Assembly: GCA_963169195.1 (NCBI GenBank)
Contig: CAUJDN010000054.1
Location: forward strand, 28,386 to 92,385
DNA length: 64,000 nt
Direction: 5' to 3'
Origin: Acidobacteriota bacterium
GTDB taxonomy: Bacteria > Acidobacteriota > Vicinamibacteria > Vicinamibacterales > UBA2999
Numbering within the stretch: position 1 is the stretch's first letter; the number at the start of each line of letters is the position of its first letter. The notes under the pieces are model-generated. The model saw only the letters and a list, made by a program, of their open reading frames with translations, did no database searches and had not been told where the DNA came from. Of this stretch, positions 2,504-61,332 are shown piece by piece. Both the position numbers and the translations under genes were made by a program.

Positions 2504-2561
2504 GACCTCTCGAGACCTCGAGACCCAGGACCCAGGACCCAGGCCCCAGAACCCAGGACCC
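2504..2561. repeat. short tandem repeat, C-tracts on + strand (GACCTCGA x2, then CCCAGGA-type heptamers x5)
   Basis: Read directly: gacctctcgagacctcgagacccaggacccaggacccaggccccagaacccaggaccc. It ends 1 nt before the ATG at 2563. Confidence 0.9.
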
Positions 2562-2562
2562 T

Positions 2563-3858
2563 ATGGATCTCCAGAAGCGCCTCGAATCGAAACACGCGGT
2601 GGCCGGTATCATCGGCCTGGGCTACGTGGGCCTGCCGCTGGCAGTCGAACTCGCCCGCAACGGCGTGAAGACCATCGGCTTCGACGTGGATGTTCGCAAG
2701 GTCAGCGAGCTCGCCTCCGGTCGAAGTTACATCCCGGACGTGCCGTCCGAGCACGTGGCGGAGGCGGTGAACACCGGGATGCTCATCCCGACCACCGACC
2801 CCGCGTCGCTGGCCGAGGCCGATGTCATCGACATCTGCGTCCCGACGCCGCTGCGCAAGACCAAGGATCCGGACCTCTCGTACGTCGTCAAGGCGGTGGA
2901 AACCACGGCGGCGGTCTTGAAGAAGGGCCAACTCGTCATCCTCGAGTCCACCACCTACCCGGGCACGACCGATGAGGTGGTGAAGCCGGCGCTCGAGGCC
3001 AAGGGCCTCGCGGCGGGCCGGGACTTCTATCTGGCGTTCTCGCCCGAGCGCGTGGACCCGGGGAACCCCACCTACCACACGAAGAACATCCCGAAGGTCG
3101 TGGGCGGCATCGACGAGACGAGCACCGAGATCGCCAGCGCGTTCTACCGGCAGGTCGTGGATACCGTCGTGCCGGTCAGCTCCACGCGCGCCGCCGAGAT
3201 GGTGAAGCTGCTGGAGAACACGTTCCGTGCCGTGAACATCGGCATGGCCAACGAGCTGGCGCTGATGTGCCACCGGATGGGCATCGACGTGTGGGAGGTG
3301 ATCGACGCGGCGAAGTCCAAGCCGTTCGGCTTCATGCCCTTCTATCCGGGCCCGGGCCTCGGCGGCCACTGCATCCCGATCGACCCCTTCTACCTGTCGT
3401 GGAAGGCGAAGCAGTTCAACTTCGAGGCCCGTTTCATCGAGCTGGCCGGTCAGGTGAACGGCTCGATGCCGGAGCACGTGGTGACCCGCGTGGCCGAGGC
3501 CCTCAACGCGCACCGCAAGCCGCTCAACGGATCGAGGATCCACGTCCTGGGCGTGGCCTACAAGCGCGACATCGACGACGTGCGCGAGTCGCCCGCGCTG
3601 GACGTGATCGAGCTGCTGACGCGCCGCGGCGCGTCGGTCACCTACTCGGACCCCTACGTCCCGGCGATCGATCACGGCCCGCACCAGATGACGGCGATCT
3701 CCCTCGACGCCGCCATCACGGCCGGCGCCGACTGCGCCGTCATCGTCACCGACCACAGGGCGTTCGACTACCCGCGCATCGTGTCGTCGTTCCCGCTGAT
3801 CGTGGACACGCGCAACGCGCTGAAGGGCATCAGGAGCGAGAAGGTCTTCGGGCTGTAA
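2563..3858 (+). CDS. nucleotide-sugar dehydrogenase (UDP-glucose/GDP-mannose dehydrogenase family, UDP-N-acetyl-hexosamine dehydrogenase type)
   Basis: 431 aa. N-terminal Rossmann motif IIGLGYVGLP and a GLGGHCIPIDP catalytic-Cys motif. Exact sugar not assignable. Confidence 0.9.
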   Translation: MDLQKRLESKHAVAGIIGLGYVGLPLAVELARNGVKTIGFDVDVRKVSELASGRSYIPDVPSEHVAEAVNTGMLIPTTDPASLAEADVIDICVPTPLRKTKDPDLSYVVKAVETTAAVLKKGQLVILESTTYPGTTDEVVKPALEAKGLAAGRDFYLAFSPERVDPGNPTYHTKNIPKVVGGIDETSTEIASAFYRQVVDTVVPVSSTRAAEMVKLLENTFRAVNIGMANELALMCHRMGIDVWEVIDAAKSKPFGFMPFYPGPGLGGHCIPIDPFYLSWKAKQFNFEARFIELAGQVNGSMPEHVVTRVAEALNAHRKPLNGSRIHVLGVAYKRDIDDVRESPALDVIELLTRRGASVTYSDPYVPAIDHGPHQMTAISLDAAITAGADCAVIVTDHRAFDYPRIVSSFPLIVDTRNALKGIRSEKVFGL

Positions 3859-4632
3859 GTGCACGCGCTTCCCACCAAGCTCCCGACTCGCGCCCTGTTC
3901 TGGGACATCGACGGCACCCTGCTCGTCACCGGCCGAGCCGGCATGATGGCGTGGGAGCGCGCGTTCGCCGCGTTCACGGGAGGCCGCGCATTTCCCACGG
4001 TGCGCCCTGACGGGCTGACGGACCATCAGATTGCCGCGTGGCTGCTCGGCAACCCCTCGCCGTACGAGACGCCTGGCGAGGAGGAGCAGAGGGCGGTCGC
4101 CAGCCTCGTCGCGCGCTACGAAGTCGAACTGGCCGGGGCGCTGCCCCTGCGGCAGGGTCGCGTGCTGGACAACGTGCGGCCGGTGCTGGAATGGCTGAGG
4201 GAGGCGAGCCCGGGAATGCTCTCGTGGCTGGTCACGGGCAACACCCTGGCCGGGGGCACGGCCAAGCTGCGGCACTACGGCCTCAGCGAGTTCTTCCGGT
4301 CCGGGCCGCTCGCGGACACGGACCATGCGGAGGCTCTCCCGCTCGCCGGTTCCTTCTCGAGCCGCGTCGAGCCTCGTGCCAACATCGTGCGGCGTGCGTT
4401 GCAGATGGCACAGGCGCGACTGCCCGGCCTCCGCGCGAGCGAGGCCCTCGTGATTGGTGACACGCCCCACGACATCGAGGGCGCCCACGCGATCGGCGTG
4501 CCGGTGCTGGCCGTCGCCACGAACACACACACGCGCGAGGAACTCGCCGCCCATGGTCCATGGATGGTGGCCGAGGTCCTGCCGAATGCCGGAGCCTTTG
4601 CGCGCACCGTCCGGAGCGGCCACAAGGGTTGA
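3859..4632 (+). CDS. HAD-superfamily hydrolase (phosphatase-like)
   Basis: 257 aa with GTG directly after the upstream TAA. HAD motif I (WDIDGTLL) and a C-terminal GDTPHDIEGA motif. Confidence 0.8.
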   Translation: MHALPTKLPTRALFWDIDGTLLVTGRAGMMAWERAFAAFTGGRAFPTVRPDGLTDHQIAAWLLGNPSPYETPGEEEQRAVASLVARYEVELAGALPLRQGRVLDNVRPVLEWLREASPGMLSWLVTGNTLAGGTAKLRHYGLSEFFRSGPLADTDHAEALPLAGSFSSRVEPRANIVRRALQMAQARLPGLRASEALVIGDTPHDIEGAHAIGVPVLAVATNTHTREELAAHGPWMVAEVLPNAGAFARTVRSGHKG

Positions 4633-4652
4633 GCACGCGGCCGGCCCGGCCC

Positions 4653-60070: not shown

Positions 60071-60205
60071 GCACGGGGGTTCGAAGCACGGGGGTTCGAA
60101 GCACGGGGGTTCGAAGCACGGGGGTTCGAAGCACGGGGGTTCGAAGCACGGGGGTTCGAAGCACGGAGGTTCGAAGCACGGAGGTTCGAAGCCAACGGGT
60201 TCAAG
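60071..60205 (+). repeat. 15-bp tandem repeat array A: GCACGG(G/A)GGTTCGAA, 8 full units + 1 degenerate
   Basis: The first base is the nucleotide after the TAG stop (60068-60070). Six GGGGG units, two GGAGG units, then gccaacgggttcaag. Confidence 0.95.
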
Positions 60206-60262
60206 GCCCGGACGTGCGGCGGGCGCAGGCCCACCACACGACCGTCGGCCGGAGTTGCGCCA

Positions 60263-60983
60263 TCAGCCGATGCCACGACGTTGCGGCTGCCACGCCACGC
60301 TGTGTGGCGGCATCACGTGGACGGCGAACACGAGCAGCGGCAGGAGAATCGATACTCCCGCCTCGCGGAGCCTGAGCCACGTGTGGCACGCCGGCACGGC
60401 CACGGCTACGGCAAGGGCCTCGTTCTTGGGCCAGGCCGCGAGGCGGAGCGCGGCACCCGCGAGAGCCAGCGTTCCCGCCCCCGGCTGGTCGTCTCGCGCC
60501 AGCAGTGCCACGCCAAGGATCAGGAAGAAGGCCACCGGGACGTCGGCCATCTGCAGCGCGCCCCGGCGCACGAACTCCGGGGCGAGCACGAGGTTCAGGC
60601 CGAGCACGGCGATGCGCGCGCCGCGACGTTCGTAGAGCGACGACGCGACGACCAGCGCCGTCCCGGCCGTGAAGGCAAGGGTGAGCGAGATGGGGACCAC
60701 CGCGCTCGCGCCGGGCTCTGAGATCCAGCCACGCGCGACCCTGGCGGGCAGCAGCAGCGGGTCGTCAGGGTGCGACCAGGCGAGTCTCCGGGGCAAAGGC
60801 GTTGGTCCAGGTCAGCGTGGGCCTGGCGAGGAACCGGGCCCGCAGGTTCCAGATGGCCCACGCGTCCCAGCCTCCCATCAGCGTCGCGACGGTCCGTTCC
60901 CACGCCGCCAGGGCCGCCGCGCCGTTCGGGTCGGGTGACACGGCAATGTAGACGACCGATGCCGATGGCGGGCTCTCCGGCAC
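60263..60983 (-). pseudogene. frameshifted remnant of a polytopic membrane protein (GT-C/ArnT-like C-terminal part, tentative)
   Basis: Two minus-strand ORFs in different frames join sensibly: ..GGWDAWAIWNLRARFLARPTLTWTNAFAPE (60765-60983), then a frame change to LAWSHPDDPLLLPARVARGW..., followed by 4-5 TM segments (60263-60796). A TM-like piece (LLVAIVAGLLTA) lies further upstream in a third frame (about 61050-61110). There is no intact N-terminal half. Confidence 0.45.
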
Positions 60984-61137
60984 GGCCGCAGCACAGGCCG
61001 CCGAAAGCGCCGTCGTCCTGTCCCGCGGTACCGCCGGCCCGCGCGCGATTGACCACGCGAGGATGCCGTCAACAGACCGGCCACGATCGCCACGAGCAGT
61101 CCCTCGCGCAACGATCCCTGCGACGCCGGCGCCGTTG

Positions 61138-61332
61138 CTCGAACCCCCGTGCCTCGAACCTCCGTGCTTCGAACCTCCGCGCTTCGAACCTCCGTGCTTC
61201 GAACCTCCGCGCTTCGAACCTCCGTGCTTCGAACCCCCGTGCTTCGAACCCCCGTGCTTCGAACCCCCGTGCTTCGAACCCCCGTGCTTCGAACCTCCGT
61301 GCTTCGAACCCCCGTGCTTCGAACCCCCGTGC
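61138..61332 (-). repeat. 15-bp tandem repeat array B: 13 units, exact reverse complement of array A (TTCGAACC(C/T)CCG(T/C)GC on + strand)
   Basis: 13 contiguous units counted. The array ends 2 nt from the TAG (61335-61337, minus strand) of the 328-aa membrane protein gene. It carries the same GGGGG/GGAGG unit variants as array A, plus two GCGCGG units not seen in array A. Confidence 0.95.

Follow-up and report, generated by a model that had tools for sequence, protein, structure and literature searches.

We analyzed a stretch of 64,000 nucleotides (nt) of DNA with 71% G+C, here called the window, from an uncultured bacterium of the order Vicinamibacterales (Acidobacteriota). The window carries short tandem arrays, most of them intergenic, of units 7 to 15 nt in length. 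The principal finding is a strand rule. Immediately downstream of a stop codon, the sense strand of an array built on G tracts is the G-rich one; just ahead of a start codon or inside an open reading frame (ORF), it is C-rich. Restated, such an array abuts the ORF that lies 5′ of its G-rich strand, whichever way that ORF points. An earlier note on this DNA (the original prediction) had described thirteen arrays and their orientation and did not recognize them as a described class of element; in fact, the strand rule was published by Rehm et al. in 2015 (PLoS One 10:e0144275; PMC4692102). We concluded that the arrays belong to an already described bacterial class, the intergenic short tandem repeats with units of ~7 nt. 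What is new is the lineage and the coexistence of many unit families, and not the kind of element. With moderate confidence, we favor the explanation that slippage gives rise to the arrays as spacer repeats and that strand-specific effects of G tracts on gene expression then filter their orientation.

The window is 99.7 to 100% identical to contigs of a single uncultured Vicinamibacterales population, for which there are independent assemblies from ENA (ERZ24907728), NCBI (GCA_020853475.1), JGI (3300009873), and many SRA runs. We detected arrays with Tandem Repeats Finder (TRF), using a common filter (period of 5 to 20, at least 3 copies, and a score of at least 40), and we read every array by eye together with its flanks. 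All thirteen arrays of the original prediction were recovered exactly where it had placed them. Under the common filter, the window held 13 arrays, compared to 0 to 3 (mean, ~0.8) in 30 dinucleotide-preserving shuffles. Eleven of the thirteen are intergenic, as had been claimed; the two intragenic arrays (positions 6981 to 7020 and 18884 to 18917) are both C-rich on the sense strand. Units carry a tract of 3 to 5 G residues on one strand, and the tracts are degenerate in the arrays that begin at 40763 and 8486. Two weaker arrays, at 40763 to 40815 (score of 48) and 48431 to 48469 (score of 41), are degenerate. At least six unit families of 7, 8, 10, and 15 nt coexist in this one 64-kb window: GACCCAG; GGTGCGGRCR, at four loci; GGGTTCTS, GGGTCTTG, and GGGGTTCK; and a 15-mer, at two loci.

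Gene ends were checked by using independent gene calls on near-identical public contigs and our own 3-periodic Markov caller, which was benchmarked against them. The independent calls placed seven stop codons (8526, 35323, 41297, 42701, 48470, 60070, and 61335) 0 to 3 nt from an array, in agreement with the distances originally given. Starts at 2563, 8470, and 40830 were likewise confirmed by independent gene calls, whereas the start of a PIG-L gene, first given as 45328, may be 45352 (gene callers differ), and the start at 20162 is uncertain, with our own caller favoring 20192.

Nine or ten of 11 arrays in the window fit the rule that an array abuts the ORF 5′ of its G strand. As evidence for the rule, the window alone is weak, since it offers 12 data points picked post hoc. 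Hence, we used two outside samples. The first comprised 80 loci (L numbers below) from other Vicinamibacterales species, around the orthologue of the GGT-fusion gene, with 192 arrays in 1.41 Mb; window and related loci together hold 205 arrays. The second comprised unrelated metagenome contigs with (GGGDCTT) in at least 3 copies, from which we took the 79 arrays whose contigs had a G+C content of 60% or more. The nonrandom orientation first proposed for the window replicated in both samples. In the related loci, where the nearest gene end was within 30 nt, arrays at stops were G-rich in 28 cases and C-rich in 6, and arrays at starts were G-rich in 3 cases and C-rich in 7 (P = 0.003; 80 loci). 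The corresponding counts by nearest gene end in the metagenome contigs were 15 and 4 at stops and 1 and 12 at starts (P = 2e-4).

The rule also held when we considered spacers by type. In co-directional spacers of the related loci, 16 of 18 sense-G arrays were nearer the stop and 8 of 13 sense-C arrays were nearer the start (P = 0.006). In convergent spacers of the same loci, 16 of 18 arrays abutted the stop of the gene for which they read G-rich (P = 0.003). For window and related loci combined, the ORF 5′ of the G strand was the nearer one for 53 of 68 G/C-tract arrays (P = 4e-6), and 27 versus 7 followed this rule after orthologous spacers had been collapsed to families; the count for the metagenome arrays was 35 of 47. 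The median distance was 3 to 13 nt to the 5′ ORF versus 48 to 115 nt to the 3′ ORF, and sense-G arrays began a median of 3 to 7 nt past the stop. Array density was 0.36/kb in divergent spacers versus 0.78/kb in other spacers. Intragenic arrays were C-rich on the sense strand in 8 cases and G-rich in 3 (window and relatives), with a ratio of 6 to 1 in the metagenomes.

Polarity is restricted to G-tract arrays. Arrays lacking G/C tracts were unpolarized in the window and related loci (23 to 17 and 24 to 18), and ~55% of the intergenic arrays there have no G/C-tract bias. G tracts are not a defining trait of the broader array population. Because the rule holds across lineages and across unrelated units, it depends on the G tract rather than on one particular sequence or on a protein site confined to a lineage. 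Replication-strand bias was not seen in the window: the plus strand is the G-rich one in 6 arrays and the minus strand in 7, with a flat GC skew. Shine-Dalgarno mimicry was considered as a cause of the avoidance of G runs near starts; the Shine-Dalgarno signal was weak (16%, versus 12% in a control region, with noisy start calls).

We then compared orthologous spacers. The spacer between the DUF4149 gene and an Iso_dh-family dehydrogenase gene (IDH; 34125 to 35135 in the window) was available in 44 orthologous copies, with lengths from −4 to 462 nt. Arrays of unrelated units, including GGGGTTC, ACTTGGG, GGGCCTT, TAGGGAT, CAGAAGG, GATTGG, and CTGAAA, occupy 19 of these copies (43%). Array-free copies have a median length of 10 nt, and in many relatives the spacer is an operon-like −4 to 13 nt. 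Since array-free orthologous spacers are ~10 nt long and the expanded ones are filled by unrelated units, we concluded that the arrays are optional insertions that build spacers; they appear, expand, change unit, and decay, and they account for most of the length of expanded spacers. Decayed arrays were found beside intact ones. The two co-directional spacers next to the DUF4149-IDH spacer contained arrays in 0 of 58 and 0 of 54 cases. The independent gain of arrays in 19 of 44 species may reflect selection, or a site-specific mutational process, at particular gene ends.

The same turnover was apparent across loci. The seven window arrays between 35 and 49 kb had counterparts in 7 of 7 cases in L022 and in 6 of 7 in L061. 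In relatives with 92% amino acid identity, counterparts kept their position, with 3 to 17.6 copies and with some units replaced. Among the 205 arrays there are 147 distinct units; a period of 7 is the commonest (84 arrays), and copy numbers range from 3 to 22 with no evident preference for four units. Intergenic sequence, ~15% of the total, holds 155 of the 205 arrays. Lineages differ strongly in array density; array counts were overdispersed between genomes (chi-square, 195; 68 degrees of freedom), and G+C content was not a significant driver of array density (Spearman coefficient, −0.12).

Copy-number comparison of orthologous spacers, proposed originally as a check, gave a divided answer: copy number varies between species, but short arrays are fixed among near-identical assemblies. 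Twelve arrays of up to 72 nt (eleven of those listed originally and the TCATCTGCG array described below) are base-for-base identical in 2 to 10 independent assemblies at 99.7 to 100% identity. This bears on the idea, raised in the original prediction, that the arrays are hypervariable contingency (phase-variation) loci, at which rapid changes in copy number switch neighboring genes on and off. The range of 3 to 17 copies, varying between species, is what such loci would display, and the two arrays of the 15-mer do vary when the window is set against three other assemblies, by 5 units in one and 2 in the other: the array at 60071 is 75 nt longer in three of them and that at 61138 is 30 nt longer in two. 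However, the 15-mer arrays exceed the length of short reads, so that their assembled lengths are unreliable and the differences may be an assembly effect. The neighbors, moreover, are housekeeping genes (thiS/thiG, IDH, peroxiredoxin, UDP-glucose dehydrogenase, the GGT fusion, and others). Together with the invariance of the twelve shorter arrays, this makes contingency loci a very improbable explanation.

Assembly itself could be suspected of producing the arrays, since short-read contigs (L014 to L020 and L224 to L228) end inside them, at window positions 35278, 45355, and 60098. Indeed, the arrays set contig boundaries for short-read assemblies of this lineage. Nevertheless, the arrays recur in independent ENA, NCBI, JGI, and SRA-derived assemblies, and analogous arrays are present in many other metagenome-assembled genomes, including megabase-scale contigs, and in one complete chromosome. 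We consider it almost certain that the arrays are not artifacts.

The explanation that we favor combines slippage with selection. Slipped-strand mispairing would generate the arrays, which would be transcribed passively within untranslated regions (UTRs) or operon spacers, and selection on strand-specific effects of G tracts would maintain their polarity. G-tract RNA, or a quadruplex formed by it, would impair translation when located near a ribosome-binding site (RBS) or within an ORF, so that only the C-rich strand would survive there. G-quadruplex sequences near the RBS inhibit expression in Escherichia coli reporters (as cited by Rehm et al., PMC4692102). Just past a stop codon, G-rich sequence would be harmless or even mildly useful, as a 3′ structure that blocks exonucleases. 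The individual arrays are probably without a dedicated, indispensable function. Stabilization of 3′ ends by RNA quadruplexes and effects of 5′ leaders, both among the roles suggested originally, are possible.

Several observations weigh against this explanation. In convergent spacers, the gene whose stop is abutted is the one for which the array reads G-rich in 18 of 21 cases in the window and related loci and in 7 of 10 in the metagenomes. Exclusion of G-rich RNA from starts does not itself explain this preference; an effect at stops, whether benefit or avoidance, is needed. The hotspot at the DUF4149-IDH spacer points to a local cause. Our own start-codon calls are noisy, with approximately one-third disagreeing with independent calls. 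We also tried three neutral explanations of the polarity, and none held. Polar growth or decay was not apparent, with a periodicity of 0.80 versus 0.74 in the 5′ and 3′ halves (n = 26; P = 0.21) and no gradient of purity. The 3′ flank did not behave as a decayed array: compared with other spacers, it showed no enrichment of 5-mers of the unit (n = 47; P = 0.45). The G orientation does not supply back-up stops, with 2.23 versus 2.22 stop trinucleotides per 100 nt and similarly closed frames.

Recurrence of particular units is a further difficulty. The 10-mer GGTGCGGRCR/CCGCACCYGY occurs at four unlinked loci in the window, and the 15-mer occurs at two loci ~1 kb apart. The unlinked arrays at 2504 and 42641 have a near-identical segment of ~40 nt in common, including a nonperiodic CTCGAGGTC tail, which hints that array segments were copied between loci. 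This recurrence and the common segment indicate that local slippage alone is insufficient, and they imply dispersal or selection for particular units. A dedicated dispersal process, or a specific binding protein, would account for them, with units either copied into additional gene ends or retained by selection as binding sites in multimeric form, and GGGGCTT-type units do recur in many genomes and metagenome contigs. On the other hand, same-unit loci have no unique flanks, target duplications, or terminal repeats in common, orthologous sites carry unrelated units, and 147 different units occur among the 205 arrays. We regard dispersal or binding of this kind as distinctly unlikely.

We considered whether the arrays are dedicated cis-regulatory RNA elements, in which quadruplexes in the RNA past the stop would terminate transcripts or cap their 3′ ends against exonucleases, as REP elements do, and unstructured C-rich leaders would tune initiation. 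Canonical quadruplex motifs, (G3+N1-7)x4, occur in 7 of the 13 arrays: the six reported originally were correct, and the array at 48427 to 48452 (minus strand) is a seventh. The whole window contains 10 such motifs. ViennaRNA places G-quadruplexes in 7 arrays, and the arrays have in silico G4Hunter scores of 0.8 to 2.0. Several arrays, however, are short of four G3 tracts or would require loops longer than 7 nt. The placement of sense-G arrays within a few nucleotides of stops favors a regulatory role, as do the 23 to 25 of ~30 arrays in convergent spacers that obey the rule and the observation that position and orientation outlast the turnover of units across species.

Terminators bear on the same question. 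The absence of visible U-tract terminators noted originally held up: in the 16 kb from 34 to 50 kb, there were 2 consensus matches versus 2.9 expected, both intragenic and neither at an array. This absence speaks for the regulatory reading. In these 16 kb, no array matches the pattern of an intrinsic (Rho-independent) terminator, a GC-rich hairpin followed by a U tract; the arrays are direct repeats. A search with Rfam 15 at the gathering score gave zero matches across the window, and there was no TPP riboswitch upstream of thiS. Efficient termination of transcription, one of the roles first suggested, is unlikely given that arrays are inserted into spacers that are operon-like in many relatives, where they are evidently dispensable; a terminator between such genes, as right upstream of IDH, would be harmful. 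The lack of G tracts in more than half of the intergenic arrays also argues against a dedicated RNA element, and Rehm et al. (PMC4692102) found no regulatory role for the repeats that they studied. On balance, we think it rather unlikely that the arrays are dedicated cis-regulatory elements.

The strand rule can also be cast in terms of Rho. Rho requires C-rich, G-poor, unstructured RNA, and its loading usually needs ~60 to 80 nt. The RNA transcribed from an array into the abutted ORF is C-rich and G-poor and resembles a rut site, while RNA that leaves the ORF is G-rich and quadruplex-prone; hence, the arrays might act as directional Rho gates, although we judge this quite improbable. Such gates would terminate antisense or read-through RNA entering the 3′ end of a gene and would let sense RNA escape only if translation starts promptly. 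One statement would then cover both the indifference of the rule to ORF orientation and the preference in convergent spacers, and the C-rich strands of several arrays are predicted to be nearly unstructured (minimum free energy, 0 to −5 kcal/mol). This scheme is inference only, many of the arrays fall below the length usually needed for loading, and arrays are missing from most gene ends. More generally, the polarity might be functional, with the arrays serving GC-rich bacteria that have no U-tract terminators as one-way transcriptional insulators at the borders of genes; this seems unlikely to us.

The individual arrays of the window are as follows, beginning with those at starts and within genes. 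At 2504 to 2561 is a (GACCCAG)n array with a GACCTCGAG head, its G-rich strand being the minus strand; the surrounding spacer of 85 nt separates the stop of a DegT-type aminotransferase gene (2477) from the start of the UDP-glucose dehydrogenase gene (2563). The array is 1 nt from the dehydrogenase ATG and C-rich in the sense strand of that gene, it is identical in 2 other assemblies, and its canonical quadruplex motif spans 2524 to 2561 on the minus strand. The GGTGCGGRCR-family array at 6981 to 7020 (G-rich on the plus strand) lies within a methyltransferase gene (6183 to 7700, minus strand) in a part encoding a Pro/Ser-rich linker, and is identical in 10 assemblies. A second array of this family (8486 to 8522, plus strand) occupies the 55-nt thiS-thiG spacer, with 3 nt between it and the thiS stop and 15 nt between it and the thiG start. 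This array, which has three G3 tracts only and is also identical in 10 assemblies, is C-rich in the sense strand and so breaks the rule for stops and obeys that for starts. Within an acyl-AMP ligase/ACP/acyltransferase gene (17505 to 20030, minus strand), a (GGGAGTC)x4 array (18884 to 18917, plus strand) sits in the linker between the AMP-binding and AMP-binding_C domains. The CCGCACCYGY array at 20071 to 20140 (minus strand) belongs to the family of the 6981 and 8486 arrays, on the opposite strand, and lies in a spacer flanked by divergent starts, one at 20030 (minus strand) and the other at 20162 or 20192 (plus strand).

One spacer absent from the original list consists entirely of an inverted pair of degenerate heptamer arrays. 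In the 280 nt between an oxidoreductase gene and a Ser/Thr kinase gene (12413 to 12692), a (GATTGSS)n array (12426 to 12518, plus strand) forms the 5′ arm right after the stop of the 1,191-amino-acid (aa) oxidoreductase gene at 12412. Its reverse complement, (SSCAATC)n (12544 to 12648, minus strand), forms the 3′ arm and leads to the kinase start at 12693, with a C/A-rich sense strand. The pair keeps the order of G after the stop and C before the start, and the spacer is predicted to form a hairpin of ~230 nt (−141 kcal/mol; z = −7.1).

Further arrays lie between 35 and 49 kb. A (GGGGTTCK)x9 array (35249 to 35320, minus strand) begins 2 nt past the DUF4149 stop at 35323 and ends 113 nt ahead of the IDH start at 35135; it is G-rich in the sense strand, and relatives hold arrays of unrelated units at this site. 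Between it and the IDH start, at 35150 to 35215 (plus strand), decayed CAATNNC heptamers, read on the minus (sense) strand, are recognizable by eye and below the TRF threshold; in L061 and L023 this place is taken by intact (GCCAATC)n arrays. A degenerate (TTGCACCC)n array (40763 to 40815, minus strand) separates the GGT-fusion stop at 40742 from the start of a Bcp-type peroxiredoxin gene at 40830 and is C-rich in the sense strand; its counterpart in L022 has 7.9 copies of the identical unit. An (GGGTCTTG)x5 array (41301 to 41343, plus strand) is 3 nt past the peroxiredoxin stop at 41297 and G-rich in the sense strand. Beside it, downstream of the peroxiredoxin gene, is a further array not listed originally, (TCATCTGCG)x3 at 41363 to 41389, a 9-mer without a G tract and hence without an assigned strand; at the orthologous place there are 9.7 copies in L022 (13755 to 13841) and 16 in L061 (13685 to 13830). 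A GACCTCGAGRCCCAGG segment plus a (CCCCACG)n array (42641 to 42697, minus strand) fills a 72-nt convergent spacer, 3 nt from the PIG-L stop at 42701 (minus strand) and 12 nt from the stop of the HMA-protein gene at 42628 (plus strand); read in the sense of the abutted PIG-L gene, it is G-rich. A (GGGTTCTS)x5 array (45353 to 45395, plus strand) lies immediately upstream of the start of the minus-strand PIG-L gene and 109 nt past an LTXXQ/Metal_resist stop at 45505, with a C-rich sense strand. In the 52 nt between two convergent genes, a degenerate CCGCACCYGY array (48431 to 48469, minus strand) directly adjoins (0 nt) the minus-strand stop at 48470 and reads G-rich in the sense of that gene; its counterparts have 17.6 copies in L022 and 9.3 in L061.

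Two arrays share one 15-mer in opposite orientations. (GCACGGGGGTTCGAA)x9 (60071 to 60205, plus strand) begins 0 nt past the stop at 60070 of a 923-aa TLC/HEAT transporter-like gene, and the inverted GCACGGGGGTTCGAA 15-mer, in 13 copies (61138 to 61332, minus strand), begins 2 nt past a minus-strand stop at 61335. In both cases, the sense strand is the G-rich one. The 0.93-kb segment that they enclose contains two small ORFs (72 and 145/177 aa), neither with a match in Pfam, and could be a substrate for inversion or for a long hairpin. The ENA contig ends inside the second of these arrays.

Some features of the neighboring sequence were recorded along the way. ARAGORN calls a 94-nt tRNA-Leu(aag) at 45630 to 45723 (minus strand) where Rfam finds no tRNA; three other assemblies have a 184-aa LTXXQ/Metal_resist gene (45505 to 46059) called across this position, and a false-positive tRNA call is probable. 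The gene at 41432 to 42628 (plus strand) encodes a protein of 398 aa in which an HMA metal-binding domain is combined with the CPC transmembrane motif of P1B-type ATPases, seemingly without most of the phosphorylation and nucleotide-binding domains; it stands beside the peroxiredoxin gene in ~40 relatives. The region from 24200 to 25830 has a lower G+C fraction (0.67) and contains two genes (312 and 115 aa) for which Pfam gave no match and which the composition-based caller missed. A 21-nt duplication is present at 24285 to 24324, and alignments to other strains break near 24310 to 24353. An 18-nt in-frame indel (28570 to 28587) distinguishes the window from five other assemblies, inside an 844-aa gene without an assigned function. 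Finally, two divergently transcribed giant paralogues (53475 to 60070; 1,234 and 923 aa) have TLC (ATP/ADP translocase-like)/MFS and HEAT-repeat domains, and one of them also has a cNMP-binding domain.

Earlier work had established the strand rule in two lineages, each with a single unit; the rule now extends to a third phylum, to many unrelated units, and to anonymous metagenome contigs. Its dependence on the G tract narrows the candidate mechanisms for an observation that has stood unexplained for ten years. Our literature search turned up no account of repeats of this kind from Vicinamibacter or Acidobacteria. There are also practical consequences. The arrays fragment short-read assemblies of an abundant environmental lineage, found in soil and wastewater, and they inflate or reshape intergenic spacers and can mislead callers of gene starts and tRNAs. 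Overall, the descriptive part of the original prediction generalizes beyond the window, and its interpretation is supported in part: a described class does exist, contingency loci are not supported, and efficient termination is unlikely.

Several known systems resemble the arrays in part. The simple sequence repeats of contingency loci in Haemophilus and Neisseria have units of 1 to 5 nt, lie in or upstream of surface, restriction, or virulence genes, and are hypervariable between close isolates. They are slippage-prone tandem repeats, as are the arrays described here, but our short arrays are invariant and have housekeeping neighbors. REP/BIME elements of enterobacteria are dispersed in gene 3′ regions with nonrandom orientation and can stabilize upstream mRNA; REPs are single palindromic units mobilized by RAYT transposases. 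The inverted pair at 12413 to 12692 gives a comparable, long hairpin, whereas the arrays in general are direct tandem repeats without palindromic units. Mobility of the REP type or of the miniature inverted-repeat transposable element type was rejected, since loci with the same unit are similar only up to the array edges. The STRR (short tandemly repeated repetitive) heptanucleotides of heterocystous cyanobacteria, an example of the class to which our arrays belong and reported in 1990 by Mazel et al., are said to be tandem, with units such as CCCCAGT, and dispersed through intergenic regions. STRR sequences occur as several unit families per genome and have mostly been used for fingerprinting; to our knowledge, the original work defined no strand rule. 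GACCCAG at 2504 resembles STRR1, and the lineage differs. MacGregor (2015; PMC4679880) described TAACTGA intergenic direct repeats in Beggiatoaceae, cyanobacteria, and Bacteroidetes. These are also heptamer tandem repeats, a few nucleotides upstream of starts, in a single orientation, and adjoining unrelated genes; in contrast to ours, they are AT-rich, have a single unit, occur chiefly at 5′ ends, and have no complementary class at stops (PMC4679880).

The closest match is the class of G-rich heptamer repeats described by Rehm et al. (PMC4692102) in Xanthomonas (GGGAATC) and Nostoc (GGGGA(C/T)T). Those repeats are ~90% intergenic and lie near the ORF 5′ of their G strand, on the coding strand past stops and on the noncoding strand before starts, at typical distances of 28 nt from the 5′ ORF against 160 nt from the 3′ ORF. 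They are scarce where ORFs diverge and, inside ORFs, on the coding strand; inverted pairs are frequent, and 83% have a matching gene context in a sister species, with varying length. Their neighbors are housekeeping genes, and each genome has one dominant unit at hundreds of loci. Circular dichroism showed that they form quadruplexes, with four units preferred; here, quadruplexes are predicted from sequence alone. The arrays described here differ in phylum, in that many sister arrays lack a G tract, in having no four-unit preference, and in the absence of a single dominant unit, the last being a difference of degree, seen in 64 kb of genome. Otherwise, the likeness is extensive. Our arrays are tandem units with G tracts, in excess in intergenic sequence, close to the 5′ ORF, scarce in divergent spacers and on coding strands, and conserved in position with varying length. 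The window, too, has inverted pairs and housekeeping neighbors, and the unit AGGGATC itself is present in the related loci L040, L085, L079, and L037.

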